A DNA stretch of 64,000 nucleotides, taken from assembly GCA_964480475.1 (NCBI GenBank), contig CAYZPW010000001.1:16262-80261 (forward strand), given 5' to 3'. The position numbers were made by a program, and so were the translations under genes. The first letter of the stretch is position 1. Every line of letters begins with the position of its first letter. Of this stretch, positions 2,898 to 52,354 are shown in pieces. Origin of the DNA: an uncultured bacterium. GTDB taxonomy: Bacteria; B130-G9. The notes under the pieces are model-generated. The model worked only from the letters and a program-made list of their open reading frames with translations, was not told the DNA's origin and did no database searches.

Positions 2898-4088
2898 ATG
2901 AGCAAGACCATCAAGCTCTTGACGATCGCGTGCGTGCTGGTTTTCAGCATGTCGTGCGCGATCATCAACGAGCAGAACATCTACACCGACGGGCGCAACC
3001 TCACGAAGGTCTCGCAAAAGGAGAAGCAGGCCAAAGAGCGCGAGCGCAAGAACATGGACCCGTACGCCAAATGTGCGGGCAATTTCCTCGATTTCGACCT
3101 CAAGGAGCTCGAGAAGCAGGCGCGGGAGGCCTACGATGCAAAGAAGTATGAGGAGGCTGCGGTCCTTTACCTCAAGCTTCTGAGGCGCAATACCACTGAC
3201 GGCGGGAACATCTACAACCTCGCCTGCTGCTACGGCCTGCTCGGCAAGCCGGAACTCGCCGCGAAGTTCCTTGAACGGGCTTACAAGGCTGGCTTCACCG
3301 ACGTCGGGTGGATGAAGAACGACCCCGACTTCGAGAAGGTCAGGGGTAACGAGCAGTTCGACGCGACGATCGCCTGCCTCGAGGGCCAGGCTAAGAAGAA
3401 AGCCGAAGGCAAGGGCAAACCCATATACATCAGCGCCTCGTCCGAGTTCAGGTGCCGCCTCAAGTTCCCCGAGGGTTACGACGCAGAGAAGGCCTATCCG
3501 CTCCTCGTTGGTCTTCACGGCTACGGCAGCGACCCCGAGAGCTTCGTCGGCCTCTGGGAGCGCTTCGACAGCCCGCAGTTCATCTATGCCGTCCCGCAGG
3601 CGCCGTATCCCTATCTACGAGGCAACGAGCAGGGCTACAGCTGGAGCGCCCCCTTGCCGGACGAGGACCCCGCCAGCGAGCGCTCAAAGCTTCAGTCAGA
3701 GGAATACGTCGCGGAACTCGTCAAGCATCTCAAAGGCGAGTACAAAGTCGGCGACACTTACCTCTTTGGCTTCTCGCAGGGCTGTAGGATGACTTACACA
3801 ACTGGCATCAAGAACCACGAGCTCTTCAAGGGCCTGATATGCTTCGGTGGCTGGTTCTCAAAGGACTGGCTGGTGGAAAAGGCCGGCATCGACCTCAACG
3901 AGATGAACGACCTCAGGGTCTTCATCGCCCACGGCAGCAAAGACACACTCGTGAAGCTGGAGGAGGGCGAAAAGGCCAGGGACATTCTCAAGGAGCACGG
4001 CTACGACGTAACGTTCCACGAGTTCGACGGTGCGCACCGCGTCCCGAAAGAGGCGCTGCTCGAGGCGCAGAAGTGGATGGGTCAATAG
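2898..4088 (+). CDS. lipoprotein with a TPR-like N-terminal region and a phospholipase/carboxylesterase-family alpha/beta hydrolase domain
   Basis: GGAGGAG RBS. Signal peptide with lipobox (VFSMSC). TPR-like helices. LVGLHGYGSD...FGFSQGCRM (GxSxG nucleophile elbow)...FIAHGSKDTLV, typical of the PF02230 esterase family. Confidence 0.7.
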   Translation: MSKTIKLLTIACVLVFSMSCAIINEQNIYTDGRNLTKVSQKEKQAKERERKNMDPYAKCAGNFLDFDLKELEKQAREAYDAKKYEEAAVLYLKLLRRNTTDGGNIYNLACCYGLLGKPELAAKFLERAYKAGFTDVGWMKNDPDFEKVRGNEQFDATIACLEGQAKKKAEGKGKPIYISASSEFRCRLKFPEGYDAEKAYPLLVGLHGYGSDPESFVGLWERFDSPQFIYAVPQAPYPYLRGNEQGYSWSAPLPDEDPASERSKLQSEEYVAELVKHLKGEYKVGDTYLFGFSQGCRMTYTTGIKNHELFKGLICFGGWFSKDWLVEKAGIDLNEMNDLRVFIAHGSKDTLVKLEEGEKARDILKEHGYDVTFHEFDGAHRVPKEALLEAQKWMGQ

Positions 4089-4128
4089 GGGAGAAGAGGA
4101 AAAAGGGATAAAGGGACAAGGGGGATCT

Positions 4129-4626
4129 ATGGAATATCGATATGATGCGCCGTGCGGGATTTACTGCGGGGCGTGCGAGACGCTGCACGCGTTCAGGGAG
4201 GGCCGCGTCGAGGAGCACGCCAAGCTGGCGCAGATGAAGCCGGAAGACGTTAAGTGCGCGGGCTGCAAGACCGACGTAAACGCGAGATACTGCATCGGCT
4301 GCCACTTCCGTGACTGCACCAAAGAGAAGGGCGTCGAGTTCTGCTTTGAGTGCGAGGACTTCCCGTGCGAGCAGCTGGTGGCCTTCCGAAACGACGAATG
4401 GCCTCACCACTCATCCGTCCTGAAGAACCTTGAGACGATTCAGAAAAAGGGCCTCGACGCTTGGCTCGAAGAGCAGGCGAAGCGCTGGAGCTGTCCCGAA
4501 TGTGGCGAGGGCTTCACCTGGTATAGGAAGACCTGCCGAAACTGCGGCGCCGAGCTCTACGATTGCCGAGCGGAAGCAGAAGACCTTAAGGAAGAGGGAT
4601 CATTCGACAAGGGGAACCACGAATGA
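4129..4626 (+). CDS. DUF3795-like cysteine-rich (zinc-ribbon) protein
   Basis: Internal ATG with a G-rich RBS. Spaced Cys pairs (CGIYCGAC...CAGC...CIGCHFRDC...CFECEDFPCE...CPECG...CRNCG) match the DUF3795 pattern. Confidence 0.55.
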   Translation: MEYRYDAPCGIYCGACETLHAFREGRVEEHAKLAQMKPEDVKCAGCKTDVNARYCIGCHFRDCTKEKGVEFCFECEDFPCEQLVAFRNDEWPHHSSVLKNLETIQKKGLDAWLEEQAKRWSCPECGEGFTWYRKTCRNCGAELYDCRAEAEDLKEEGSFDKGNHE

Positions 4627-4779
4627 ACACCAATAAACACGAAGAAGGCCTGTTTCTGCCTTTGTGTCTTCGTGCCTTTGCTGTTGACTCTTACAGTCTC
4701 TGACTCTACCTCGGCATTCGTGTTCTTCGTAGTTCAGCTAATCTCAGGAGCGTGAATGAGCAAGTGCAGAATAACAAAG

Positions 4780-7413: not shown

Positions 7414-8277
7414 ATGGCAATGCAGGTCATCGAGGAGGTGCTGAATGGCTATCTCGTGGGCGAATCGGCGGAGGCCCTCGTTGAGAGGCATCCCCACGCG
7501 AAGAGGTTCATTAAACGGACCTACGAGTGGCTCGGGCCGGTCGAGGAGCTAACCGACGTCAAGCGGCTGATGCTTGGCCGCGTTCTTCTGCCATTTGATT
7601 TCCTCACAAAGCGGACCGAGGACCACGAGGCGATCTACAGGGACTGCTTCGAGCCAGGCGGACGAGGCGAGGCGCTTGACGAGAAGATCGCGGCCGCTGC
7701 GGGCCTGCCGAAGTTTTACTCACCTATTTCCAATTACAGGGAATACGTGGAGACCCGGGACGGCATGAAAGACCCCAAGAAGAAAGAGCTCTATAGAGTG
7801 CTCGGGATGCTCTCCCACGGGCTGCATGGGCTCTCCGATTGCCATCATGCCTGTTTCCGATGGATAGAGAATTGGATTCTGAGCATCGGCGCGGGCGAGA
7901 TGGAGACTGCAACGCACGCCAAGGGGACGGAGAAGGAGCGCCTCGGCAGGCTGCTCTTCGGTTACGTCCTCGCGCTGGACAGGTGGCTTCAGGACGTGTC
8001 GATGCACTTCCTGCTGCTCGACCTGAGCCACGTTGACCTGGGCTTCGATCCCAAGAACGAGATACTCCAGGTCTATGCCCATCTCGGCGAGGAGCGGACG
8101 CCCGTCAGGGAATGGCTCGCTGCGTCCCTTTGGAAGAATCTGAGCCTGATGCCGGTCGGGCCAGGGCGGTTCCTGCACAAGGAACTGCTAGAGCGGTCCA
8201 AGCAGGCGGGGACATCTCTCCGCGGGTGGATCGATCACAAGAGGAAACCACGAATGAACACGAATGGGCACGACTAG
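7414..8277 (+). CDS. hypothetical protein; start may be the second ATG at 7420
   Basis: 287 aa. CAGGAG RBS gives better spacing to ATG 7420. Contains RVLGMLSH (Rx6H). The stop codon lies inside the left arm of a long hairpin repeat. Confidence 0.45.
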   Translation: MAMQVIEEVLNGYLVGESAEALVERHPHAKRFIKRTYEWLGPVEELTDVKRLMLGRVLLPFDFLTKRTEDHEAIYRDCFEPGGRGEALDEKIAAAAGLPKFYSPISNYREYVETRDGMKDPKKKELYRVLGMLSHGLHGLSDCHHACFRWIENWILSIGAGEMETATHAKGTEKERLGRLLFGYVLALDRWLQDVSMHFLLLDLSHVDLGFDPKNEILQVYAHLGEERTPVREWLAASLWKNLSLMPVGPGRFLHKELLERSKQAGTSLRGWIDHKRKPRMNTNGHD

Positions 8278-8376
8278 TGCCCCTTTTCCCTCTCTCGTCT
8301 CTGTGTCTCTGTGGTTGATCCACATCATCCTTGAGCTTCCCTCATTTTTCGTGTTCATTCGTGTTCATTCGTGGTT
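8246..8376. repeat. long inverted repeat: 21-bp perfect arms (aaccacgaatgaacacgaatg / cattcgtgttcattcgtggtt) around a ~89-bp spacer
   Basis: Arms read directly at 8246-8266 and 8356-8376. A related motif, accacgaatgaacac, sits at 4617-4640 after the DUF3795 gene. Confidence 0.55.
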
Positions 8377-8388
8377 GAATCAGCTCTT

Positions 8389-9654
8389 ATGGATCACGTG
8401 GTATTATCTGATGTGCGGTCACAACCCATCCGCGTGATGCGGGTGATCACACAGCTCTCGCGAGGGGGCGTGGAGGCGAAGCTGGCCGAGCTCTTGCCTT
8501 TGCTCAGGCAGCAGGGCTTTGATGTCTCCGTGTGCTGCATCAAGGAGGCAGGGTCGCTGGCTCATCGGTTCGCCGAGGCGGGGATACCGGTTCACGTCCT
8601 GCCTGTTCGATCGCGGCTGCATCCGATCGACATGCTGCGCCTCGCCCGGTTCATCAGGCAGGAGCGGCCCGACATCGTGCACACGCACATGTATGCGGCG
8701 AATACGACAGGGACGATTGCTGCGCGGCTCGCGAAGACGCCGGTTATCGTCGCAAACGTTCACAACGTGGGGAAGTTCGCGTCGCGGCGCCAGGTTTTGC
8801 AGGACAGGATATTGTCCCGGTTCAGGGATGCGACGGTCTGCGTCTCAGAGCGGGTCAAGGCGGATTACCTTGAGGCGACAGGGCTTTCGGACGAGAAGGT
8901 AATGGTGATCTACAACGGTGTGGATACTGAGAGGTTCAGGCCAAGTTCGCAGGCTGGAAAGCCCGCCCCACACGGCCAACTGCCAACCGCCAACGGCCAA
9001 CCGATCAGGCAGGCTAGAAAGCCTACCCCACATGGGCGGGCTGGAAAGCCCGGCCCGCACTGTGAGCTCCGGAGGGAACTCGGAATCGGGGAGGACGAAC
9101 GCGTTCTGATTTCTGCCGGGCGCCTCATCCCGCAGAAGTCACCGGACCTTCTGATCGCTGCGTTCAAGATAGTCCACAAATCGCTCCCAGACACGCGGCT
9201 GTTGGTTCTTGGGACGGGCGAGCTTCGCGACGATCTTATGGCCATGACCGATAGGCTTGGACTTTCAGCGAGTGTTATCTTCGCGGGCTTTCGAGAGGAC
9301 ATTGCCGAATGCCTTGCCGCTTCGGACGTTTTTGTGTCATCCTCTGTTAAGGAGGGCTTCTCGAATGTGCTGCTTGAGGCGCTGGCCTCTGGCCTTCCGG
9401 CGGTGGTTACGGATGTCGGTGGGAATCGGGAGGCGGTCCGCGATGGTCGGGAGGGCTTCTTGTGTGGGCCAGGCGCAGAGGAGTTAGCCGAGTGGATTAT
9501 GCGCATTTTGGGCGATTCGGGCCTTCGAGAGCGCATGTCAAAGAATGCTAGGGAGCGAGCGATGGAGTTTAGTTTGGAGCAGATGGCGAACCAGACGGCG
9601 GCGTTTTATCACCGTCTTTTCTCGCAGAAGCGAGGGAGTGTAGCCGATGAATAA
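8389..9654 (+). CDS. glycosyltransferase family 4 (GT-B fold)
   Basis: N-terminal GT4 domain. C-terminal EGFSNVLLEALASGLPAVVTDVGG motif (the E-x7-E region). The inter-domain linker is made of in-frame 26-bp tandem repeats. The start is uncertain (alternative GTG at 8371 or ATG at 8437). Confidence 0.8.
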   Translation: MDHVVLSDVRSQPIRVMRVITQLSRGGVEAKLAELLPLLRQQGFDVSVCCIKEAGSLAHRFAEAGIPVHVLPVRSRLHPIDMLRLARFIRQERPDIVHTHMYAANTTGTIAARLAKTPVIVANVHNVGKFASRRQVLQDRILSRFRDATVCVSERVKADYLEATGLSDEKVMVIYNGVDTERFRPSSQAGKPAPHGQLPTANGQPIRQARKPTPHGRAGKPGPHCELRRELGIGEDERVLISAGRLIPQKSPDLLIAAFKIVHKSLPDTRLLVLGTGELRDDLMAMTDRLGLSASVIFAGFREDIAECLAASDVFVSSSVKEGFSNVLLEALASGLPAVVTDVGGNREAVRDGREGFLCGPGAEELAEWIMRILGDSGLRERMSKNARERAMEFSLEQMANQTAAFYHRLFSQKRGSVADE

Positions 9655-11663: not shown

Positions 11664-13805
11664 TCAGCCCACTGACTTCGAACTTTGGGCTTTGGACTTG
11701 GACTTCGGACTTTTCTTGAACTTCAAGGAGACCCATGTCTTGAAAACGAGTGGCCAGGCCCTCAGATTGAAGACAAGATTGACCGGCAGGATGCACTCCC
11801 ACGTGCAATAGCAGTTGGAGGTCTTGATGAAGTCGAAGAGTTTTTCGGCCCGCTCCGACTTCAAAAGGGCTCGGACGTCATAGCCGTTCTGCCTTAGATT
11901 GCCGAAGCTCTTGTTGAGTATCTCACACGGATAAACGTCGCCCGTGTCCCCGATGACAATCACTTTCTTTCCTGCTACGCAAGGATACGTCATCTTACCG
12001 TTTCTGGCGGCCATGGCATTCTCTTCCGGGGCCAGACGCATTAGGACCTCCTTCATTCCGGCGAATGGGTGCTTGTCCCGGCTCTTGAATTGCTCATCGA
12101 GGCGCAGCTTCGTCATCGCCTCGTAATAGTCCTGCATAGTGACATTTATCGCTCGCTTGTCACGAGCGTCGCCTCTGACGATGTTGATCGAGTGCTTCAG
12201 GCCAAGGTCGCAGGCGATGAACTCATGCAGCGGGACCATTTGGTCCTTGTTGAAGTAGGTGTAAGTTGTGCCCACTCTCAGGCCAAGGTTGGGATATCTG
12301 TCAGCGAGTGGCATCAGATGTCTTAATGTCTTAACTGCCTTTTCAAAGCCGTCTTTGACACCCCTTATCATATTATGCGTCTCTGGGAGGCCATCGAGCG
12401 TCACCTGAACCATGAGAAATGAGTGGGGGCAGCGGTTAAGTATCTCCCTGGCAATGTCAACTGTCTTCTCAGGCAAATAACCGTTCGTGTGCATGCAGAT
12501 AATATGGGCGCCGTTGTGCCTGTAGAAAGTCTCGCAGATGTCCGGAATGTCGTCCCTGAGCGTTGGCTCGCCGCCGGTGATGGCGAGGTACTTGATATGA
12601 CCGAGGCTCTTAGCGATCCTCTGGACCTCATCGAGCGACAGCTCCTGCCGCTTGAGCGACTCGTCCTGCCTCCTCCAGTTGAAGCAGTAGTTGCATTTGT
12701 TGTTGCACCTTGCGGTGACGAAAAGGATAACGTAGGGCGGCATACGGCTGAGAAGAAAGCGCACGTTATCAATTGGAGACAACAACGCCATGAGCGTTCG
12801 GGAAGCAATATGCCGCACGAGTGCAAGCGACACGCCAACCCCGACCGTCAGGTAGTAAAGCGTGTTGCAGATAACGGAATAGAAGGCGAAGACTATGTGC
12901 TTCCGTTTGGCTACCCAGAAGTAGAAATGATAGTTCATTACTACGGTCAGCGTGAACAGGGCGAGCGATGCCCAGAGCAGCGCTGGGTATAACGGTGACA
13001 AGAGGAGCGCTGCAAGCATCAAAACGGCGAGCATGACAGATATCTGCTCTTGTGGTCCGTTGGGATTGTCTCTTCTGCCTCGCGCCCGCAGAAAAGACCC
13101 CAGGACCCTATTGCTGCGCTTGAACCACTGCTTGAGTTTGGGAAACAGTGGCAGGTAATGGTGCCGGAGCTTGATGTCCGTGAAAAAAACAACCTTATGA
13201 TGCTTGATTAGGCGCAACCCCAGATCATAATCCTCGCCACCGATCCCTCCCAGCGACGAATCAAAGCCCCCCACCTCCGCGAACACATCTCTTTGTACGG
13301 CGCCTCCATAAGAAGGGAAGCAACAACTGAGGTATCGCGTCCTTGCCCGGTGCCTGCCCTCGAAAAGATAGACGCATTTCAGACCAATGAACGTTACACC
13401 CCATCGCTTGTCGTCAAGAGCGCCGGACATAACGCCGCCAGCGACTCTGATCTTGGGGTCCGACTCGAACGCGGCCGCAAACCTCCTGAGCGTATCCGGG
13501 GCAGGGACGATGTCCGAATCCATGAACACCAATATCTCGCCCTTCGCCTCTTCCGCCGCTCGGTTTCTCGCCTTCGCCACGCCCAAGTTGCGAGGCTGTT
13601 TTATGAGCCTCACGGGATACTGCTCGGCAATGTCTCTCGAAGCGTCCGTGCTACAATCGTCAACGACGATCACCTCGAAATCGGGATAGTCCGACGCGCA
13701 CGCGGCCTGGAGCGTCTCGCCCAGGGTCCTCTGGGCGTTGTAAACCGGAATAATCACCGATACTGACGGGTGCCTTCTCTCCGCCCGAGAATAATCCTCA
13801 CTCAT
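11664..13805 (-). CDS. fusion protein: GT2 glycosyltransferase (GtrB/DPM1-like) + transmembrane segments + radical SAM/SPASM domain
   Basis: N-terminal VSVIIPVYN...VVDDCSTD...DSD (GT2 DxD motifs). Two to three transmembrane helices. Then CNNKCNYC (CxxxCxxC) and a C-terminal Cys cluster CVAGKKV...YPCE...CYCTWEC (SPASM-like). AAAGGAA RBS before ATG 13805. Confidence 0.75.
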   Translation of the reverse strand: MSEDYSRAERRHPSVSVIIPVYNAQRTLGETLQAACASDYPDFEVIVVDDCSTDASRDIAEQYPVRLIKQPRNLGVAKARNRAAEEAKGEILVFMDSDIVPAPDTLRRFAAAFESDPKIRVAGGVMSGALDDKRWGVTFIGLKCVYLFEGRHRARTRYLSCCFPSYGGAVQRDVFAEVGGFDSSLGGIGGEDYDLGLRLIKHHKVVFFTDIKLRHHYLPLFPKLKQWFKRSNRVLGSFLRARGRRDNPNGPQEQISVMLAVLMLAALLLSPLYPALLWASLALFTLTVVMNYHFYFWVAKRKHIVFAFYSVICNTLYYLTVGVGVSLALVRHIASRTLMALLSPIDNVRFLLSRMPPYVILFVTARCNNKCNYCFNWRRQDESLKRQELSLDEVQRIAKSLGHIKYLAITGGEPTLRDDIPDICETFYRHNGAHIICMHTNGYLPEKTVDIAREILNRCPHSFLMVQVTLDGLPETHNMIRGVKDGFEKAVKTLRHLMPLADRYPNLGLRVGTTYTYFNKDQMVPLHEFIACDLGLKHSINIVRGDARDKRAINVTMQDYYEAMTKLRLDEQFKSRDKHPFAGMKEVLMRLAPEENAMAARNGKMTYPCVAGKKVIVIGDTGDVYPCEILNKSFGNLRQNGYDVRALLKSERAEKLFDFIKTSNCYCTWECILPVNLVFNLRAWPLVFKTWVSLKFKKSPKSKSKAQSSKSVG

Positions 13806-14117
13806 TTCCTTTTGAGGCCGTCCGGCAAGATTCTTGTGCTTAAGTGTCCAATTGATCCGAAACGCGGGTAGGCTACCACGTGGGTGAGGTGCTTGCAAGG
13901 TGGCAGGCCGGGCTTGCGTCTAGGTCGAGGGTGAACCCTATTGGTCGTGGCTTCAGCCGGGCGATTGAACGAGGCGTTTCCCCACCATTAGATCGCCCTG
14001 CTAAAACAGGAAGCTAATACAACTGGCCGTGACAATTGCCGCGTTCAAACGCTGCAATAATCACAAACATGTCCTTACCTACGATTGAGGATCACCCCCT
14101 GCCGCCTGGCCTCGGGG

Positions 14118-14352
14118 TAAGTCTTTCCCCAAAACTGAAGCTCCAATCGCTCAATTACTGCCTATATAGGCGCATTAAGAGCACTCACGAAGTGAGATAC
14201 GTCTGTTTCGGAAAAGAGGCCCTGCGATTAGCTGTCTCGCACTCGCCAGGGACAGGACTCACGCTTTCTGGCTACTATCGGTCTGTCCCCTTTCGCCTTT
14301 CCCCCTTTCCCCCTTTTGTCCCGTTTCCCCAATGGGGAAACTCCTCCTCAGG
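14118..14352 (+). repeat. MITE-like ~235-bp interspersed repeat, copy A
   Basis: About 80% identical over ~225 bp to 61824-62047. Ends in a polypyrimidine tract plus a gtttccccaatggggaaac hairpin. ORF 14036..14488 across it is probably spurious. Confidence 0.55.
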
Positions 14353-14478
14353 GGTCTTGGCAGAGGCGAAAGAGGTAAATAGGTCAATCCCGGACGTAGA
14401 GAAAGACACGCGAGAGACTAGTTGCAGAGAGGCCTTGCCCGCAACGGCTGGGCGACATCGGAGATGTGAGCTGCGTGG

Positions 14479-26995: not shown

Positions 26996-27391
26996 ATGAG
27001 CGAAGAGACCAAGAACGATTCGCCGCGCGGCGAACAGAAAAGGCACTTCTTTAGAGGGGAGGTGGCTCTGACTGTGCGAGCCGAGCTGTTCGCGCTTCCC
27101 GACGGCTCAGAACTCCCAACTGATAGGGAGATACCCATCGATATGATCAATGTAGGCGGCGGTGGAATGCTTCTTCTGGTGACGCGCCGGACCCCGACTA
27201 CTGAGCTCGTCTGCGACAGAGCACTGGTTGACCTGTCGATTCCGAGTTTTGGGTCGGTTCTCGTGATACGGCTGCTTTCCCGCGTCGTCAGGATAGAGAC
27301 GCCAACGCCGGACGAGCTCCGCCTTGCTCTTGAGTTTCTCCTCCTCTCTCCGAAAGAGGCCGACGCCATTGTGCGCATGGCCTCGCCCTGA
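26996..27391 (+). CDS. PilZ-domain protein (c-di-GMP receptor)
   Basis: RHFFR (RxxxR) followed by DMINVGGGGM (D/NxSxGG-type) motifs. The start ATGA overlaps the upstream stop. Confidence 0.6.
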   Translation: MSEETKNDSPRGEQKRHFFRGEVALTVRAELFALPDGSELPTDREIPIDMINVGGGGMLLLVTRRTPTTELVCDRALVDLSIPSFGSVLVIRLLSRVVRIETPTPDELRLALEFLLLSPKEADAIVRMASP

Positions 27392-27458
27392 ACCCCTTGT
27401 GGCGCCCGTCCATTTGAGTGAATCAAAAGGAGGTAAAACCATCACGAGGAAACGAGCG

Positions 27459-29324
27459 ATGAGATTGCTAATTGTCGCCTTGATGCTTGCGCTTCTGGCG
27501 CTCGGCTGTGCCGGCATGTCCGACTCGGCCAGATACAAGGCTTACGAGGCCAGAGATAGGGGCGACTATGACGAGGCAATCGCTCTATTCTCGAAGGCGA
27601 TTCGCCTGAACCCCGAAAGTGCAAAGGCTTACCTGGGGCGTGGGCGGGTATATAGCAGGATGAAGAAGTATGACCTGGCCATCGCTGATTTCGACATCGC
27701 CATACAACTGGACCCCGAGCACTCTTCAGCATACGACAGCCGCGGGACCGCATACGAGAACGAGGGTCAACGTGACAAGGCGCTGGCCGATTACGCCAAG
27801 GCGATTGAGCTTGACCCGGAGAACTACGTCGCACACAACAATCGCGGACTACTCTTTGCGCGCGAGGATGACTATGGGAAGGCAATTGAGGAGTTCAGCA
27901 AAGCAATTGAGATAAACGCCAGATACGTCAAGGTCCGGTGCAACCGAGGCAATGCCTATGCCGACATAGGCAAGTTGGATGAGGCGATTGCCGACTACTC
28001 CGAGGCAATCAAGATCGATCCCAGAAGCTACAAAGCCTACGGTTCCCGGGGGGATGTGTATGCTAAGATGGACCTGCTTGATGAGGCGATCGCGGACTAT
28101 TCAGCCGCAATCAAGATGGAGGCTGGTCGTGCCAGCTTCTACTGCGATCGCGGGGACGCCTACGGCGACAGGGAAGACTATGACAAGGCGATCGCCGATT
28201 ACGCGAAGGCCATAGAACTCAGGCCCCAATACTGGAGGGCCTACTGCAATCGCGCGGGAACCTACGGCGATATGGGGGAGCTCGACAAGGCTCTAGCGGA
28301 TTACGATAAGGCGCTGGAGCTCAAGCCCGACTCATCAGAGACCTTCAACAGCCGTGCCTGGATGTTCGCGGAGATGGGCCAGTTCGAGAAGGCCATGCCC
28401 GACGCCAACAAGGCGATTGAGTTGGTCCCAGAAAGCGCCTCGGCTTACGACACGAGGGGCTACGCCTACGCCGGGATGGGCAAATATGACCTGGCGCTGG
28501 CGGACTACGAAAAGGCGCTGGAGCTCGTGCCCATCTATCCAGAGGCCCTGTATCATCGGGGTCGGCTCTTCTATGCCCACGGCGAGACCGAAAGGGCCCT
28601 GGCGGACTACGGTGAGGCGTTGGAGTTGAGGCCCAACTACGCTGAGGTCTATCTCAACCGGGCGCGAATCCACGAGGACTGGGAGCGCTGGAAGAGCGCA
28701 ATCACTGACTACACCCGCGTGATTGAGGTCCGTCCCTGGTCGTCAGAAGGCTACGTCAGGAGGGCCTACGTCTATTCCACGCAGGGCCGGTTCAAGCTTT
28801 CGGTCGCGGACTACGACAAGGCGGTTGAGGTCGATCCCACATGTGACCAGTGTTATTTGGGCCGCGCACGAGCGTGCCTCTCCATGCGCCTCTTGGACGG
28901 CGCGATCGCAAGCTGTTGCAAGGCGATTGAGGTGAACCCGGAGTGCTGGGACGCGTATCAGCTGCGGGGAAGCTGCCACCTTGACAGGGGCGAGTTCGAG
29001 GCGGCGATTTCGGATTGCAGCAAGGCCGTTGAGATCAACCCGCTGTGCAGCGAGGCGTTCAACAGCCGGGGCTATGCACGCGCTGCCCTGGGCTACGTAG
29101 AGAAGGCGCTTGAGGATTACACCAGAGCCGTCGAGCTAAACCCGAGCTTTGCCGACGCCTACTTCAACATGGCCACGGTCCTGGAGGCGACGGACCGAAT
29201 CGACGAGGCGATACGAGCCTATCGGCTCTTCGTGCAGTATGCGCCTCTTGAGCGCGGCAAAGCCGTCCAGCACGTCAAGAAAAAGATCGTGCGCCTCTCC
29301 CGCACGCTCGAAGGCCGCCGCTGA
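27459..29324 (+). CDS. TPR-repeat lipoprotein (about 17 TPR units)
   Basis: AAAGGAGG RBS. Signal peptide with lipobox (LALGCAG). Repeated A..Y..A..LDP TPR pattern throughout. Confidence 0.8.
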   Translation: MRLLIVALMLALLALGCAGMSDSARYKAYEARDRGDYDEAIALFSKAIRLNPESAKAYLGRGRVYSRMKKYDLAIADFDIAIQLDPEHSSAYDSRGTAYENEGQRDKALADYAKAIELDPENYVAHNNRGLLFAREDDYGKAIEEFSKAIEINARYVKVRCNRGNAYADIGKLDEAIADYSEAIKIDPRSYKAYGSRGDVYAKMDLLDEAIADYSAAIKMEAGRASFYCDRGDAYGDREDYDKAIADYAKAIELRPQYWRAYCNRAGTYGDMGELDKALADYDKALELKPDSSETFNSRAWMFAEMGQFEKAMPDANKAIELVPESASAYDTRGYAYAGMGKYDLALADYEKALELVPIYPEALYHRGRLFYAHGETERALADYGEALELRPNYAEVYLNRARIHEDWERWKSAITDYTRVIEVRPWSSEGYVRRAYVYSTQGRFKLSVADYDKAVEVDPTCDQCYLGRARACLSMRLLDGAIASCCKAIEVNPECWDAYQLRGSCHLDRGEFEAAISDCSKAVEINPLCSEAFNSRGYARAALGYVEKALEDYTRAVELNPSFADAYFNMATVLEATDRIDEAIRAYRLFVQYAPLERGKAVQHVKKKIVRLSRTLEGRR

Positions 29325-29440
29325 GCAGCCGGGGACAAATCCGTCATCGCTATTGTTGAGGCGCGGTCTCTGACCCGCCCGCTTTATGGATTGAACAGAA
29401 TCGGCCGTCGAGAACTTAGCAATCAATTAGAACGGGTAGA

Positions 29441-29470
29441 ACGGGCGGGTCTTCAGACCTCGCCCCTACA
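29441..29470. repeat. partial copy of the REP-like palindromic element (one hairpin unit)
   Basis: gggcgggtcttcagacctcgcccctaca, as in 31042-31073. A related half-site is at 29357-29381. Confidence 0.4.
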
Positions 29471-29673
29471 CAAATCCCCTTTCGCCTTTCCCCGTTTTCC
29501 GCATTGACCCATTGACCTTTCACCGGCGCGAATCTCATTCAGCGATTGAGTTCAAGACAACATGGTGGTTACGTGAGCGAAATGATGCACAATAACGCAC
29601 AATAGTGCACAGTATTGACTCAGTGATTCCTGATTCCTAAACGAGATTACTCTGACGAAGGCAGCGCTAGACA

Positions 29674-30939: not shown

Positions 30940-30955
30940 CTGCGCGGATAGGCCG

Positions 30956-31073
30956 TGTAGGGGCGGGGTCTCAGACCCGCCCGCCTACATGAATCCCTGC
31001 GGATACGAGGCATCTTATGCGAGCATCAATTCGAAAGGGCGGGTCTGAGACCACGCCCCTACATAACCGCAAC
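30956..31073. repeat. REP-like interspersed element: two palindromic hairpins around a ~47-bp core
   Basis: tgtaggggcggggtctcagacccgcccgcctaca ... agggcgggtctgagaccacgcccctaca. Nearly identical in reverse orientation to 42785-42903. Confidence 0.6.
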
Positions 31074-31126
31074 GACTTATCTCCCAGCCTCCAACCAGCG
31101 TCACTGCCAGGCCAGAGGAATGTGGG

Positions 31127-31865: not shown

Positions 31866-34800
31866 CTAGTGGAACTCAAATGGGGTTACCCAGATGTCGG
31901 TGACGGGCGAGAGGGTGCCTGGCCAGCAAAAGGCGGTGTAGAACGTGTATGTCCCGGGCGCGAGCGAGCCGTCCAGAACGACGTCGATGAACGTGAGTCC
32001 TTCTGGACAGTAGTATCCGGGCAGCGGGCGCCACTCTATCGGCGTCAGATCAACGCTAAACCCCGGCAGGCACAGCATCTGGCTGTCCGGCAAGACGACC
32101 ACCGCGTAAAGGTCAACGTCAACCGGCTCTCCGGGGTTGTAGCAATAGAAATCGGCCGTGAGCCGGTCGCCAGCATGGAAATCATCTCCGTTCACGAGGA
32201 TGGCGGCCGTTGGGGCGCCGTCGCTTGGATAGCTCCCGACGCAGTTTGAGACCTGCGACCAATTGTTGGAATCGTCAACCGCCTTGATCGCGAAGTAATG
32301 ATACGTTCCGGGCACGAAGCCCGACACAACGAACTGCTCAGCCGAGCCGCTCGTCCGCGGCGTCCAGGAAGTCGAATCAGCATAGACCGTCGCGGCAGGC
32401 CAGCTTGTCTCATTAATAGGGGCGGCGCCGAACCTAAGCTCGTAGGCGCTTGCGGTTCCGAATCGACCGTTATCGCCGGTCGCGGTGAAGCTTAGGAGTA
32501 ACTCGCCCGCGTTGAGCCATTTTCTGGCCGCAAGGTCGCATATCGGCGACGGCGGCACGGTTTCGCCGGTCGGCGTCGCGGAGGCCACATTCGACATCCG
32601 CGAGCCGTTGCTCGCCTCGTCGTAGGCCTTAATTGCGAAGTAGTGGGTCACGTTCGCCGTGAGGCCAGAGACCGCGAACGTCTCTGCGCTTCCTGCCGGC
32701 TGCGGCATCCAGAATAGAGAAGGCTCGTACAATGTGGCGCTCGAGAAGGTGTCAGCCGTGATCATCGACAACGAGTAGCGCAGCTCGTAGGACGACGCTG
32801 TGCCCTCGATGCCGCTGTCGCCCGTGGCGGTGAATCTCAACACGACGGAGTTCTCGCCAGCGGTCGCGGAGAGATTCTGTATAGAGGACGGCGGAACCGT
32901 ATCGCGGCCCGCTGTAGCTGAGGCGCAGTTTGAGACCTCCGATTGGTTTGAACCGTCGTCAAACGCCTTGAGCGCGAAGTAGTATGTTCTGCCGGAGACA
33001 AGGCCTGAGATGGTCTTCAGCTCCTGCTCTCCCGCTTCAAGTGGGGTCCAAGCGAGCGAGGGTTGATAGGTCTCCACGAACGCCCAGTTGGTGGCGCCGA
33101 TCTCAAACTCAGCGTATTTGAGGATGTAGCGGGTCGCGGCGCCGACAGTTCCGTCGTCGCCCGTCGCCGTCCAAAATAGGATCAATTGACCTTCCACCTC
33201 GCCGTCCTGGCCAGCGAGGTCCTCAATTCGCGCCGGTGGCACTTGGTCCTGACCGCCACCGGCGGACGCGCAGTTGGACACGGCCGACCAGTTCTCGGCG
33301 TCATCGACGGAGATGATGGCGAAGTAACACGGTATGCTGGAATCGAACCCGGAGATGACGAACGATTCGCTCGTGCCGGCCGTCTGGGGGACCCATTCAA
33401 GGGAGGGCGCATAGACCTGGGCGGCGTCCCAGTTGCCCGCGTTGATGAATGATTCAGAGTATCTGAGCTCGTAGCCGACGACTGTGCCGACGGTTCCGTC
33501 GTCGCCCGGCGCCGTGAAACTCAGCGTTATTTGACCCTCGAATGGCCCGGAAACCGCAAGCAAGTCCTCGATTGCCGCCGGCGGCACATCATCTGACGGC
33601 GCCTCAGTTGAGGCGAGATTCGAGATTGCCGAGGCGTTGCCCGCGTCGTCGAACACCTTGAGCGCGAAGTAGTATGCGGCTTCTGCGCCCAAGCCCGTCA
33701 CCGTTCTCTGCTCCTTGACTCCGGCTTGGACGGGCGTCCACGAGGTTGATGGCTCATAGAGCGTCACGGTGGAGAAATCGGACGCATCAAACGGCTCGGT
33801 GTGGTATCGCAGCTCGTAGCGCGCCGCCGTGCCGGAGCTGCCGTCATCGCCCGAGGCCGTCCAGCTGAGGTCGCAGGTTGTGGGGGTGTCGGCGTCCCGT
33901 TGAGCCGAGAGGTCCTCGACCCTTGCTGGTGGGACATTATCGTGCCCCGAGCCAACGAACATCATCTCGATCGTTGCGTCCGCGAGGTTGCCCCCGCCGT
34001 CGCGAGCATAAACGCTGAGTTCAACTATGCCCTGGCCGCTGTATGACACAGGCAGGTCGTTTGAATAGACGAAATCGCCCGGCCGGAGGTCCCCGTGCGT
34101 GCCGTCGTCGTAGAGCTCGGTGTCCGTCTCGCCGCCAATCGGGAGCAGATTAGCAGTTACGGAGGTTATGTTGCCGCGGCCATCCTTGTGCACCGCACAG
34201 ACGCAGAACAGGACATCAACTTCGCCGTTCTTCCCAGGCGCCGAGTCAACCACAGCCGGATATGACAGCGCGTAGGCTATTTCAACGGTCGAGCTGCCGC
34301 CGCTCTCACGGACCGAGCGCTGGGTCGTGCCCACGTCAACGGTCGCCTGAACAAGTTCGCCCTGCGAGACGGTGAAATCGCCCGACTGGGGCACGAACAG
34401 AGTCTCGAGGTCTTCGTCGCCACCGGAGAAATCCTCTACCATGAGGTAGAACGTGCCCGGAGCAGGAAAGAAGCTCACTCTTCCCGACGCGGCGAGGCTA
34501 CCCTCGTTCTTTCGGCCCAAATAGAGGCCGTCGTCCGCGAAAAGATAGGCCCTTGCCGACTGGAACGCCGCTCCGTTCTTCTGAACGGTAACCTCCACCT
34601 CGTTCTCCACGAACGTCTTTGTGATGCTTATGGATTCGGCCGCCGAGAGCTTGACGAGGCGCTCGCATCTCGAATCCCTCACATCGGCGCCAGATGTGAA
34701 TTGGAGCCTGTATTGGCCCGGAGGCACGGTTAGCGTCCGCTGGCCGTCGTCGCCTACACCGTAGTCTGGGGTCGAGGCTACCCATTTGCCTGAGCTTTCG

Positions 34801-37202
34801 TCGAAGACCTCGACGTCGCCGTTGCACGGGCCGTTTGTGTTCTCGATTCTTGCGTGGATGTATGCCGTATCGACAACTACGTCCCGGTCGAGGCTCTGTC
34901 CGCTGGCGAGCGAGACAGGAGAATCGAGGCTCTGCACGTGCGTGGCGCCATCAAAGCCCTGATATGTCAGTTGGGCCTCGTATTGGCCGGTTAGGAGCAC
35001 ATAGGAGCGCTCGCCCAACGGCAGTGCGCCAACGTCGGGGGGCATGCGCCTCGTATCGTCTTTGTGGAGCAGGCTCGTAAAATCCTTGTAGCCGTCCGAT
35101 GCCGGAACGTAGATGTAGAGCGCAAGATTGCTCGTAACCGGCCCCGCCGAATCGAACGTCGAAATCGTCAGCTGCCCTTGCCCCACGGTCTTGGAATGCT
35201 GCTTACGCTGGCCCGCGGCGAGCTGTATCGGATAGTCGATGGGGTGCGCGGCGATGCTGTTGGGATCGACGTATTGGTATCGGAAGCTGAACGTTGACGG
35301 CATCAGGTTGAACGTGTGATCGCTGGCGGCAAGAAGTGGATAGCCGTCGGCCGCAGTCAGGAGCGTCCCCGCCGAGTTATATATCCAAATCCTGCCCTCA
35401 GCCGAGCCGTCCCGGTCGCGCAGGTCAACCCAGACCGTGCCGTTGCCAAACGTAACGGTATCCGCGTCGCTCGCGCCCTCGGCCAGTGTGAATCCCCTCG
35501 TGATAACGCAGGCGTTAGGCGAGGACTCGTCATAGGCATACTTGATGGTGTATGTGCCCGCCGGGACATCCCACTCCTGAAACCCGTCGTCGCCTACGCC
35601 ATAGCGCGTGGTCTCCTCGACGAGCGCCCCGGTCTCCTCGTCGTAGATCGATGCGCCGCCGTTGCACGACCCATTGGCGTCGCGGAGATAGATGCCCAGC
35701 GTGCACGAGTCCGTGCCGCGCTCAAAGTCCAAGAGGTCGAGCGTGTATGAGTTCGCCTCCAGGTCGTTTGCTTCGATGTCGAAAAAGAACCGCTCAATTG
35801 GATCGCCCTCTTGAGGCGCGAAATAGACCTGAACGATGTATGTGGCTGGGATGACGTTATCAAATGAGCAGAGCCCGCCTTCGTGGGCCAGCGCGCTCGC
35901 CACCGCGTCGCCTGTGTCCTGATTGAGAAGGAACGCCGTCGCGGAACTGGCGGGGACGTTCTCGCCATCGTAGCGGACCCTCAGCGAGAGATCGCTGCCC
36001 CGCTCGACGGCGATCTGTAGCGTTTCAGTTGCGCCAGCGGCAAGTTCCCGGCCGACGAGGAACCACGTCTTCGAGGGCTCAACGAGCGAGTTCTCGACCT
36101 TGACGCTCACGCTGCCGGCAGGGACGTATCCGAAATCGACGATACCTCCAGGCCCGGGGGATTTGCCCTCATCAATCACGTCGAAACTCGGGTCGTGTAT
36201 CAGCGAGAGCTTCACAGCGTCATCGACAATTGGCGTTCCCGCGGCGTCCTTCACCTCGCAGCGCAGCCTCGCGACCTCGTCAAGAAGGATCGGGAGATTC
36301 ACGCTAAGGTCCGCCGGCGCCTCAAGGTCAAAGAAATATCGCTCCAGGCTCACAAGGCCGCGGTTATAGACGACCTTGATTTTGTAGTAGCCTGCGACTA
36401 CTTCGCCAAAGTCGGCCCTGCCGGAGCCGTCGCACAACAGCGCGTCAACGACCTCCGAAAACGGCGCCGATTGGTGCGACAAGAAGACCGTCGCCGAACC
36501 GGTCAGCGCTCGACCGAATGAGTCGGAGACCGTGAACTTCAGGCCCGAACAGAGCGGTATCTCGACGCGCCTCGTCTGGTTCGAGTTCGGCTGAACCACG
36601 ACGTCGAACGTGTGAAATCCGCCTTCAGGCCGAATCGACCAATGCCGCACCTTCGCGGAGTATATCCCTGGAACCACGTCATCGAAGTGCGCCTCTCCCA
36701 GACCGTCGCAGCGAACGCTGTCAACGAGATTGCTGGTGATTTGATCGTATAGATAGACGTCAATGTCGCCGTCCGGAACGGAGCCCGCCTCAGACCGAAC
36801 CCGTATTCTGAGATCGCCGCTGGAGCGAAAATTGATGGAGTCCTGAACGTCCTGCCCCGGGCCGACGACGATGTGGTGCTTGAACTTGACCACGACCGGC
36901 TGCACGCGCACGTGCTTGACCCTGATGAAATAAGTGTTGGCGCCTAAGCCCGAGAAAGTCAGCTTGCCCTCGGCGTCCGTCATGATTTTGCCAGGCGGGT
37001 CCTGAAACGCCAGATTGCCCTCGACAAACAGCGCGCCCTCCGCGTCGCCCGCAGAGACAGAACCCAAATCGTCAAGAACTGTCAGCTCGATACTCGCCGC
37101 GGCCGCGTCCGAGGCGGACCCCAATGAGCTGCTGCAAACCAGAAGCGCAAGCACTAGAAACGCTTGCGGCCAATTTCGGGCCTCTGAATTCCTATTCATC
37201 AT
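31866..37202 (-). CDS. giant secreted protein: Ig/CarboxypepD_reg-like beta-sandwich repeats, five tandem FN3-like repeats and a distinct C-terminal domain
   Basis: 1778 aa. N-terminal signal peptide. Five ~108-aa repeats (PPA.IEDL...GDDG..G....YELRY...Y.FA.KA.D...N.S). C-terminal ~120 aa share motifs with the C-terminus of ORF 60047..61723. Confidence 0.75.
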   Translation of the reverse strand: MMNRNSEARNWPQAFLVLALLVCSSSLGSASDAAAASIELTVLDDLGSVSAGDAEGALFVEGNLAFQDPPGKIMTDAEGKLTFSGLGANTYFIRVKHVRVQPVVVKFKHHIVVGPGQDVQDSINFRSSGDLRIRVRSEAGSVPDGDIDVYLYDQITSNLVDSVRCDGLGEAHFDDVVPGIYSAKVRHWSIRPEGGFHTFDVVVQPNSNQTRRVEIPLCSGLKFTVSDSFGRALTGSATVFLSHQSAPFSEVVDALLCDGSGRADFGEVVAGYYKIKVVYNRGLVSLERYFFDLEAPADLSVNLPILLDEVARLRCEVKDAAGTPIVDDAVKLSLIHDPSFDVIDEGKSPGPGGIVDFGYVPAGSVSVKVENSLVEPSKTWFLVGRELAAGATETLQIAVERGSDLSLRVRYDGENVPASSATAFLLNQDTGDAVASALAHEGGLCSFDNVIPATYIVQVYFAPQEGDPIERFFFDIEANDLEANSYTLDLLDFERGTDSCTLGIYLRDANGSCNGGASIYDEETGALVEETTRYGVGDDGFQEWDVPAGTYTIKYAYDESSPNACVITRGFTLAEGASDADTVTFGNGTVWVDLRDRDGSAEGRIWIYNSAGTLLTAADGYPLLAASDHTFNLMPSTFSFRYQYVDPNSIAAHPIDYPIQLAAGQRKQHSKTVGQGQLTISTFDSAGPVTSNLALYIYVPASDGYKDFTSLLHKDDTRRMPPDVGALPLGERSYVLLTGQYEAQLTYQGFDGATHVQSLDSPVSLASGQSLDRDVVVDTAYIHARIENTNGPCNGDVEVFDESSGKWVASTPDYGVGDDGQRTLTVPPGQYRLQFTSGADVRDSRCERLVKLSAAESISITKTFVENEVEVTVQKNGAAFQSARAYLFADDGLYLGRKNEGSLAASGRVSFFPAPGTFYLMVEDFSGGDEDLETLFVPQSGDFTVSQGELVQATVDVGTTQRSVRESGGSSTVEIAYALSYPAVVDSAPGKNGEVDVLFCVCAVHKDGRGNITSVTANLLPIGGETDTELYDDGTHGDLRPGDFVYSNDLPVSYSGQGIVELSVYARDGGGNLADATIEMMFVGSGHDNVPPARVEDLSAQRDADTPTTCDLSWTASGDDGSSGTAARYELRYHTEPFDASDFSTVTLYEPSTSWTPVQAGVKEQRTVTGLGAEAAYYFALKVFDDAGNASAISNLASTEAPSDDVPPAAIEDLLAVSGPFEGQITLSFTAPGDDGTVGTVVGYELRYSESFINAGNWDAAQVYAPSLEWVPQTAGTSESFVISGFDSSIPCYFAIISVDDAENWSAVSNCASAGGGQDQVPPARIEDLAGQDGEVEGQLILFWTATGDDGTVGAATRYILKYAEFEIGATNWAFVETYQPSLAWTPLEAGEQELKTISGLVSGRTYYFALKAFDDGSNQSEVSNCASATAGRDTVPPSSIQNLSATAGENSVVLRFTATGDSGIEGTASSYELRYSLSMITADTFSSATLYEPSLFWMPQPAGSAETFAVSGLTANVTHYFAIKAYDEASNGSRMSNVASATPTGETVPPSPICDLAARKWLNAGELLLSFTATGDNGRFGTASAYELRFGAAPINETSWPAATVYADSTSWTPRTSGSAEQFVVSGFVPGTYHYFAIKAVDDSNNWSQVSNCVGSYPSDGAPTAAILVNGDDFHAGDRLTADFYCYNPGEPVDVDLYAVVVLPDSQMLCLPGFSVDLTPIEWRPLPGYYCPEGLTFIDVVLDGSLAPGTYTFYTAFCWPGTLSPVTDIWVTPFEFH
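32230..33860 (-). repeat. five tandem ~324-bp coding repeats (FN3-like units) inside the giant gene
   Basis: Five consecutive, alignable ~108-aa units in the translation. Coordinates are approximate. Confidence 0.45.
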
Positions 37203-42756: not shown

Positions 42757-43022
42757 GAGGCTGTGTCATAAGTTGTTGCCGTTGTGTAGGGGCGTGGTCT
42801 GAAGACCCGCCCTTTCGAATTGATGCTCGCATAAGATGCCTCGTATCCGCAGGGATTCACGTAGGCGGGCGGGTCTGAGACCACGCCCCTACAGGCCGAT
42901 TCCGACAATCGCGTCGCATAAGAAAACCGCCGCGTTGATCTTGACAATCGGCCGTATTTCCTGTATCGTTATTGTCTGAATGCACGACGAAATCCTTGCC
43001 AATTGACTTATGACACAGCCTC
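42757..43022. mobile_element. MITE-like unit bounded by 16-bp perfect terminal inverted repeats, enclosing a REP-like element
   Basis: gaggctgtgtcataag (42757-42772) and cttatgacacagcctc (43007-43022) are exact reverse complements, 234 bp apart. Confidence 0.4.
42785..42903. repeat. REP-like double-hairpin element (reverse orientation relative to 30956-31073)
   Basis: Reverse complement matches 30956-31073 with only a few substitutions. Confidence 0.6.
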
Positions 43023-52059: not shown

Positions 52060-52354
52060 CTCAGAGCGGATGACCTTACGTTATTGAAAGTCGCAAAAGA
52101 CGCCTAAACGTTCGCATCAAAGCGCTGCGATGTCAATTGGTAAGGAGGGCCAGGAGTTTTCGCAATAGTATGCCTTGGGGCGGCTGCAGACGTGCTGGCG
52201 GCTCACTTTGAGGGATTCTGGCCCCAGAGGCTTCTGGAATCTGGGCGGGAGGCGGGGACTATTCGAAAGTGATGCTTCAATGCCCTGAAAGGGGCATCAT
52301 GTGCGTAGCCGTAGGTGAAACCTACGGATCTTTGCGAAGAGAAAGCTAATAGAC

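Follow-up and report, generated by a model that had tools for sequence, protein, structure and literature searches.

The repeats at three places in the window, as the whole 64,000-nt stretch of DNA analysed here is called, are probably members of a family of non-autonomous, MITE-like DNA transposons of a Coatesbacteria-type lineage, sited next to -35-like hexamers. The evidence supports a non-coding mobile element and not a structured RNA. Both readings had been put forward in the initial annotation. The MITE-like one is strengthened by terminal inverted repeats (TIRs), duplications of the target at a number of independent loci, an empty site for one of the three copies (copy C), the non-coding nature of the sequence and about 40 related copies. 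The RNA reading finds no support, with no Rfam match, a terminal hairpin as the only product of consensus folding and no excess covariation. The most distinctive property of the family was missed in that annotation: its palindromic end is fixed 15-18 bp upstream of -35 hexamers.

Copies in the window and the wider family

The window had been described as holding a pair of repeats of about 225 bp, each with a C/T tract and a palindromic hairpin, and this description was borne out. The pairwise alignment of copy A (14119-14346) with copy C (61824-62046) extends over about 223 nt at 79% identity, and a repeat search of the window returns the direct-repeat pair 14124-14346 / 61826-62048 (223 nt, 79% identity). 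Copy B, on the minus strand, is common with A and C only over about 60 nt, which comprise the C/T tract and the palindrome. It had been regarded as a partial copy; the shared tract and palindrome stand, but it is not a random fragment and represents a discrete 3' module that recurs elsewhere. The sequence CGTTTCCCCAAYGGGGAAACTCC occurs three times in the window (at 14322, at 62024 and, on the minus strand, at 59834) and in none of 100 shuffles. The positions of the copies and of their parts are given in Table 1.

The copies had also been placed next to surface-protein and flagellar genes. This holds only in part. The neighbours are a gene with a flagellin N domain (FlgL-like) on one side of copy A and a GT2/radical-SAM gene on the other, a gene for a secreted 573-aa protein of unassigned family between copies B and C, a DnaB_C-domain gene facing copy B, and Lon downstream of copy C. 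The longest-ORF start of the 573-aa gene (60047-61768) is probably too long. The likely start is the ATG at 61717, preceded by the Shine-Dalgarno sequence GGAAGGGG, and it was placed there because the database protein P0001 has 556 aa. Similarly, the start of the 744-aa ORF (11664-13898) is probably too early; the likely start is 13805, and the database protein P0131 has 713 aa.

Table 1. Positions of the element copies and of associated features in the window
Feature	Position	Strand	Remarks
Pyrimidine tract of the same type, without palindrome	4075-4118	-	21.3 bits
Copy A, left imperfect flanking direct repeat CCTCGGGGT	14110-14118		at the element boundary, 213 nt 5' of the palindrome
Copy A, full-length element, 228 nt	14119-14346	+	nhmmer E = 5e-57
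Copy A, 5' TIR-like end AAGTCTTTCCCCAAAA	14119-14134	+	
Copy A, pyrimidine tract	about 14283-14322	+	
Copy A, palindrome	14323-14341	+	followed by TCCTC, 14342-14346
Copy A, right flanking repeat CCTCAGGGGT	14346-14355		
TTGGCA, -35-like hexamer	14357-14362	+	15 nt 3' of the copy A palindrome
Pyrimidine tract without palindrome, then directly TTGACC	29474-29503	+	weak: 12.8 bits, E = 0.09
Promoter-like TTGACT-17-TATCGT	59791-59819	-	17 nt after the copy B palindrome
Copy B, solo 3' module	59832-59903	-	79.9 bits
Copy B, TCCTC	59832-59836	-	
Copy B, palindrome	59837-59855	-	
Copy B, pyrimidine tract	59856-59903	-	G/A-rich on the plus strand
TTGAAT, candidate -35 of the divergent 573-aa gene	61803-61808	-	read from the sequence; putative promoter role
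Copy C, left target-site duplication TCTAAGACTGGTGG	61810-61823		14/14 match to the right copy
Copy C, full-length element, 223 nt	61824-62046	+	palindrome 62025-62043
Copy C, right target-site duplication	62047-62060		

The full unit of the family is about 227 bp long. Copy lengths range from 217 to 231 nt, and six copies are exactly 227 nt long, with no indels among them despite identities of 61-78%. The terminal inverted repeats described earlier (GGAGTTTCC.../...GGAAACTCC) are real, and the 5' TIR has the 15/16-nt family form (C/G)AGGAGTTTCCCCAA(A/T). In the best copies the 3' end ...TTGGGGAAACTCCTC is the inverted complement of the 5' end at 15/16 positions; the TIR is degraded in copy A, L027 and L020 (numbers with L denote loci outside the window). 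The 3' TIR is preceded by its own inverted copy, and therefore a 19-bp palindrome, GTTTCCCCAAYGGGGAAAC, is formed; the TIR itself consists of the right arm of this palindrome plus TCC(TC). About 150 bp of non-coding sequence separate the 5' TIR from the pyrimidine tract. The tract, immediately 5' of the palindrome, is built from 2-8 copies of an 8-nt unit (CCTTTTCG-like), shows autocorrelation peaks at 8 and 16 nt, and is composed of 42% C, 44% T, 10% G and 4% A. A second subfamily has a different 5' part. Many copies contain a conserved promoter-like sequence, TGGACA-18-TACTAT, which is absent from the L012 subfamily. Every reading frame is stopped in some of the copies, no ORF is conserved, and 3-nt periodicity of the substitutions was not found (p = 0.6).

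At about half of the loci, including that of copy B, only the 3' 70-85 bp are present as a solo module. Solo forms have about 8 nt in common just 5' of the tract (GGTCTGTCC / GGACGTCC), so that the 5' edge of the module looks discrete. Intermediate 5' truncations occur at a few loci (L016, L009, L029, L041). Tracts without a palindrome are also present, as at the two places in the window listed in Table 1, of which the one on the plus strand lies upstream of an EPSP-synthase gene.

Further copies were collected with the exact palindrome as a search pattern in one genome per species and in metagenome contigs; the invariance of the palindrome in the collection is a consequence of this exact-pattern ascertainment. 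In the one-genome-per-species set the palindrome is found in a single MAG, CBDVDH01, at five loci whose flanks are unlike the window, with a copy number of 5-8. The metagenome scan returned 44 loci. About 38 of these carry the pyrimidine tract and are true members, forming 34 independent contexts, and the rest are chance matches; L014, L031, L038, L046 and L024 were rejected as pattern matches in unrelated DNA. Two metagenome loci correspond to copies in the window (L034 to copy C, L028 to copy B). In total, at least 13 copies are full-length (nhmmer, MAFFT). The family is not limited to the copies first noticed: about 40 copies are known beyond the window, with TIRs and duplications at other loci, and all of them come either from a single MAG of the genome collection or from metagenome contigs that belong to the same lineage. 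Records named Candidatus Coatesbacteria are among the close orthologues of the window Lon (77-94% identity) and of the GT2/radical-SAM protein, and the host is therefore taken to be an uncultured Coatesbacteria-type bacterium. No match to the element was found among the viral contigs and plasmids searched, and a full-text literature search for the palindrome sequence returned no paper.

Several other repeats are present in the window and its relatives. A second family consists of G+C-rich palindromes (TGTAGGGGCGGGGTCTCAGACCCGCCC / GGGCGGGTCTGAGACCACGCCCCTACA) at 29439-29473, 30945-31091 and 42757-42904. It includes an inverted doublet (30956-30982 / 31037-31063) and a 102-nt inverted pair of 93% identity 11.7 kb apart, and its motif also occurs in L002 and L054; its GTAG start is reminiscent of REP/REPIN elements. 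The sequence GCAGGCTGGAAAGCCCGCCCCACAC forms three tandem-like copies at 8949-9060 and is also found in L001 and L004 of the related MAG. The repeat CGGCCAACTGCCAAC(C/T)G(C/T)CAAC occurs at 8964-8994 and 59933-59963, the second just upstream of the copy B tract, and short-unit repeats (AAAGTCC, GCAATCC) similarly precede the solo modules in L008 and L017. Inverted repeats of AACCACGAATGAACAC(C/G)AAT... (4615-4646, 8246-8273, 8345-8376; 28-32 nt, 91-93%) flank a 3.7-kb segment. Upstream of lon, L052 (3990-4230) and L053 (1-130) have 3-4 tandem units of about 77 nt (...CTCCTTTCACTAGCGGGCGTGCCCGGTCGGCTCGCAGCCGAGAGCCTCGGCTCCCATAG...) that are absent from the window, and this close relative lacks the 573-aa gene that stands between the DnaB-like gene and lon. 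Coding repeats comprise 102-nt TPR units at 27570-29146 in a 666-aa protein (27324-29324); in a 1778-aa protein on the minus strand (31866-37202) the repeat units, at 32430-33860, are about 345 nt long.

Traces of insertion and turnover

Duplication of the target was assessed by searching the 300 nt upstream for repeats of the 24 nt that follow the palindrome, and the null distribution was obtained by swapping flanks between copies. Direct repeats at the element boundary, 212-218 nt upstream of the palindrome, are present in five or six full-length copies. The matches are 14/14 in copy C, 13/13 in L006, 11/12 in L012, 9/10 in L040 and 8/8 in L036, and a score of at least 10 was reached in 2 of 436 swapped-flank comparisons. 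The repeat of copy A is imperfect, CCTC(A)GGGGT, and weaker than those of C, L006, L012 and L040. The apparent length of the duplication varies from 10 to 14 bp unless microhomology is assumed at the ends; as read from the sequences, a duplication of 10 bp fits every case if 0-4 nt of microhomology with the element ends are allowed. An apparent 16-bp duplication at L043 (JGI2924J29684_1078278) was rejected, as it belongs to an unrelated tandem repeat of about 227 nt that contains GTTTCCCCAAAGGGGAAAC.

The direct repeat that brackets copy C had already been noted as exact and taken for a target-site duplication. It is exact, but its length is 14 nt and not 13, and its interpretation is confirmed by an empty site. 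A metagenome contig with a 94% identical Lon (L051) has the same flanks and a single copy of the target, TCTAGAATTGGTGG, with no element between them (...GATTCAAATCTAGAATTGGTGGATTCGG...). Beside this empty site, at about 3400-3760 of L051, lies a short, apparently truncated ORF, which we take, by eye, to resemble the N-terminal zinc-ribbon of IS1595-type transposases. For copy A, a syntenic relative or empty site was not found; the GT2/radical-SAM orthologues lie in a different neighbourhood, without the module.

Other loci show turnover of the sequence. The promoter beside copy B, TTGACT-17-TATCGT, has conserved orthologues in both L052 and L054/L055. The module itself is absent from L054/L055 and degenerate in L052, where the palindrome is broken and the spacing is 12 instead of 17 nt. 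At one further site a full version (L040) and a solo version (L004) of the element are found. Their tracts are 68% identical, while the genes beside the site are 96-98% identical at first and second codon positions. This difference points to turnover or recombination between copies.

On these observations the element would be mobilised by DDE-type transposition, either cut-and-paste or replicative, with a duplication that fits 10 bp and a transposase presumably supplied in trans. Several findings count against this explanation, among them the varying apparent length of the duplication and the positions of copies A and C described below. Neither a TIR pair more than 300 nt apart nor a linked transposase was found in the window and the fetched loci, that is, in about 0.4 Mb of related DNA, which leaves the family with no autonomous partner there. 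In addition, convincing duplications were not found around the solo modules except at L017 (8/9), and these modules may have arisen by deletion, by recombination or through mobility of their own. A TIR-like match at 52151 was considered as part of an autonomous partner and rejected; it is weak, and the genes that follow it are a peroxiredoxin-type gene and a gene of unknown function, not a transposase. Another TIR-like sequence, AGGCGTTTCCCCAC (GGGGAAACGCCTC on the minus strand), lies at 13972-13985, about 135 nt upstream of the 5' end of copy A, and may be a relic end of another element. Variant modules with the hairpin ATTTCCGTGTTGCGGAAAC or GTTTCCCCGAATGGGGAGAAC were observed at L005 (2619-2666), L030 (3920-3967), L016 (4162-4216) and L050 (7627-7700). 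Exactly 13 nt after such modules the 5' end of a full-length element, CAGGAGTTTCCCC, begins; the variant module of L016 instead has a promoter 16 nt away. Full elements are thus stacked head-to-tail behind such modules, with the offset kept.

Position beside promoter-like hexamers

All copies were aligned on the palindrome, and the best -35/-10 match was scored in the 34 independent downstream contexts. The palindrome is followed by TCCTC, about 10 variable nt, a TTGACA-like hexamer, 17 nt and a TATAAT-like hexamer. The best match begins 15-18 nt after the palindrome in 24 of the 34 contexts, and a literal TTGAC stands at that position in 21 of them, against an expectation of about 0.4% per sequence. 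The next gene is mostly co-directional and starts about 95-125 nt after the palindrome. The centre of the palindrome would lie near -61/-62 of a sigma-70-type promoter predicted from the consensus, which in this lineage is probably TTGACA-17-TATAAT. The hexamers are inferred to be active promoters from their sequence. Among full-length copies, the palindrome end points toward the promoter in 11 of 12. In L006, L012, L040, L036 and copy A the stretch from TCC(TC) to the hexamer contains the duplicated target; consequently, the hexamer belongs to the host sequence, with the insertion site 0-3 bp upstream.

The copies in the window follow this arrangement to different degrees. Copy B is separated by 112 nt from the start of the DnaB_C-domain gene (59724), and its promoter-like sequence lies in between, about 70 nt upstream of that gene. 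Copy C lies 112 nt upstream of lon, and the distance from its palindrome end to the lon -35 box is 52 nt. The spacing rule holds for copy C only at the other end, where GGAAACTCC of the 5' TIR, read on the minus strand, precedes TTGAAT with 13 nt in between; this hexamer, 16 nt from the GGAAAC of the TIR, is also present at the L051 empty site. Copy A faces a weak hexamer at which a promoter scan found no full sigma-70 match. There is no co-directional gene behind it because the flgL-like gene converges there. The genes downstream of the family encode, among others, Lon, a helicase-domain protein, CspA, a PFOR subunit, glycosyltransferases and TetR. A heat-shock regulon, suggested by the nearby Lon and Hsp20, was rejected in view of this diversity; the downstream genes are functionally unrelated and therefore do not form a regulon.

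The position can be explained by the choice of target or by selective retention. The duplicated target lies 0-3 bp upstream of a TTGACA-like hexamer, the palindrome end nearly always faces the hexamer, and the 3' 70-85 bp also persist as a discrete solo module at the same position. In the explanation preferred here, targets beside -35-like DNA would be favoured, and copies would be retained at some loci since the module would act there as an upstream promoter or insulator element. Target choice is consistent with three findings: the hexamer outside the duplication is the only feature common to the targets; copies A and C stand beside weak or opposite-strand hexamers without obvious benefit; and the module decays at the copy B orthologue. 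Selective retention is suggested by the orientation bias, by the conservation of the L012/L030 element above synonymous sites and by the strict conservation of length. We favour target choice, with occasional exaptation, as the cause of the position, a preference that sequence alone cannot separate from retention. A more specific version is offered tentatively, as a possibility somewhat short of even: the element may target promoter DNA, either the TTGAC motif or DNA bound by sigma factor and RNA polymerase, and insert 0-3 bp upstream of -35 hexamers. It would thereby act as a mobile promoter accessory or insulator that delivers a palindrome at about -61 and a rut-like tract to many unrelated genes.

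It is unlikely that the family is instead a resident cis-regulatory promoter module, with the palindrome as the operator of a dimeric activator in a class-I-like position (about -61.5), the tract as an upstream architectural element, similarity kept by selection and mobility incidental. Such a module would be expected to keep a spacing of 15-18 nt to the -35 box and to point its palindrome toward the promoter, as is the case in most contexts and copies, and it is kept at orthologous promoters in different genomes. The element shared by L012 and L030 is 92-94% identical, compared with 78% at third codon positions of the adjacent gene, and full-length copies hold 227 nt without indels at 61-78% identity. 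However, the duplications and the empty site show that the whole 223-bp unit came by insertion. At the orthologues of copy B, the palindrome is broken and the spacing reduced from 17 to 12 nt in L052 with the promoter intact, and the promoter is conserved without the module in L054; of what would mark a class I site or UP element, a fixed upstream position is seen, but one orthologous promoter does without the module. The version found in L040 differs from that at the same site in L004, and the unrelated downstream genes form no regulon. Finally, in a variant hairpin a C-G pair is flipped to G-C with the pairing intact, a change more in keeping with a hairpin than with a fixed protein site.

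Function at the RNA level was also considered. For the 3' module as RNA, folding predicts a pyrimidine tract without structure and, after it, a hairpin of about -11 kcal/mol. The rut site of a Rho-dependent terminator is a C-rich, G-poor, unstructured RNA stretch of at least 40 nt that lies downstream of a stop codon and gives Rho-dependent 3' ends; the composition of the tract given above and its predicted lack of structure agree with this. In all 11 solo modules for which an upstream ORF could be called, the gene before the module is co-directional (crude ORF calls), and its stop codon is often only 60-200 nt away. The module might accordingly be a terminator or insulator in which Rho would load on the tract as on a rut site and the hairpin would cause a pause or stop, so that read-through from the upstream gene ends before the next promoter. 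We regard this as improbable. The hairpin is followed by UCCUC and not by a U run, a scan for intrinsic terminators at the modules gave nothing, and without a U-tail the module does not qualify as a canonical intrinsic terminator. Full-length copies are often found between divergent genes, where there is nothing to terminate, and in L004 the module is already directly preceded by a canonical terminator. Nor would such a role account for the fixed spacing to the -35 box.

A retro-mobile, SINE-like origin is very improbable. In such a target-primed process nicked targets would receive a copy of an RNA that ends in the hairpin, so that 3' ends would stay constant while copies could be truncated at the 5' end. 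The 3' end is indeed always intact, 5' ends vary from solo through intermediate (L016, L009, L029, L041) to full-length forms, the apparent duplication length varies, and solo forms begin near the predicted start of the internal promoter-like site. The clear TIRs argue against it, as do the fit of all duplications to a fixed 10 bp, the solo and intermediate forms without duplications and the lack of any reverse transcriptase linked to the elements; recombination between copies, or decay on the side that faces away from the promoter, would account for the truncation just as well.

The RNA folding results leave little room for a structured RNA. Rfam gave no match at the curated gathering thresholds and only chance-level matches at permissive ones. 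RNAalifold on 13 copies yields the terminal hairpin and one weak 8-bp helix on the forward strand, and only the hairpin on the reverse strand. In the TIR "stem" a compensated change is never seen, and 9 of 11 pairs depart only by breaking. The internal stem ctgtc...gacag noted earlier is present in copies A and C, and the CTGTCTC/GGGACAG pairing is kept in 83% across the 13 copies, but its covariation does not exceed controls: the double changes come mostly from one subfamily, and 23 of 500 shuffles, like the slid controls, reach the overall covariation. A small RNA or riboregulator gene of about 225 nt, to which the terminal hairpin, the partly conserved internal stem and an internal TGGACA-18-TACTAT that would start transcription at the pyrimidine tract might point, is the least probable reading of all, given these folding and covariation results, the missing promoter-like site in the L012 subfamily and the location of copies upstream of promoters and not in 5' UTRs.

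Significance and comparison with known systems

MITEs are well known in bacteria; a single position relative to the -35 box at more than 20 independent loci is unusual. If target choice is the cause, the family would be a rare bacterial case of promoter-directed integration, to which the retrotransposons that home to Pol III promoters in yeast offer an analogy. If retention is the cause, the family would illustrate how a selfish element can carry a regulatory or insulating module to unrelated genes. In both cases, the family provides a lineage-specific promoter marker for an uncultured phylum without experimental genetics, and its repeats are likely breakpoints of genome rearrangement and of MAG misassembly.

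Among systems that are not MITEs, REP/REPIN elements are mobilised by RAYT transposases, cause no target duplication and carry a 5' GTAG signature. The family resembles them as short intergenic palindromes repeated across a genome. They have no TIR-bounded unit of 227 bp, and the palindrome of the family lacks the 5' GTAG. The classical class I position of CRP is about 61-62 bp upstream of the transcription start. The family is like class I sites and UP elements in that its palindrome centre lies about 61-62 bp upstream of the putative start, with a tract rich in T runs further upstream; it is unlike them in that the module is delivered by transposition, is dispensable at L054, and has no A/T-rich sequence from -38 to -52. 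Among insertion sequences, ISAs1 has CAGGG ends and direct repeats of 8-10 bp, and subgroups of IS4 also make duplications of about 10 bp. The CAGGAG ends of the family and its duplication of about 10 bp presumably resemble ISAs1, which is a lead only; neither a transposase nor a full-length IS with the TIRs of the family was found in the window and fetched loci.

The closest parallels are bacterial MITEs. Elements such as Correia/NEMIS, ERIC and RUP are shorter than about 250 bp, non-coding, intergenic and present in many copies, have TIRs, target-site duplications and filled and empty sites, and in some cases influence neighbouring promoters or transcripts (Delihas 2008, PMC2229807). The window family shares these defining features, except for a cognate transposase, which was not found. 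It differs from classical MITEs in that it is not A+T-rich, has neither TA termini nor a TA duplication but a duplication of about 10 bp, forms no stem-loop of the whole unit but only 15-nt TIRs and a local palindrome at one end, and contains a pyrimidine tract with an 8-nt period. Correia elements carry promoter boxes of their own (PMC2229807), whereas the family stands at a fixed offset from host -35 boxes. Compared with the 26-bp TIR, TA duplication, IHF site and Neisseria host that characterise Correia/NEMIS, the family has a 15-nt TIR, a duplication of about 10 bp, no TA termini and another lineage as its host. YPAL/RU-2 of Yersinia is about 168 bp long, is not A+T-rich, has no TA termini, shows empty/filled polymorphism and an apparent duplication of variable length, and targets regions of dyad symmetry (PMC2229807). 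Compared by description, it is the nearest in style among the described elements, from which the present family differs in adjoining -35-like hexamers.
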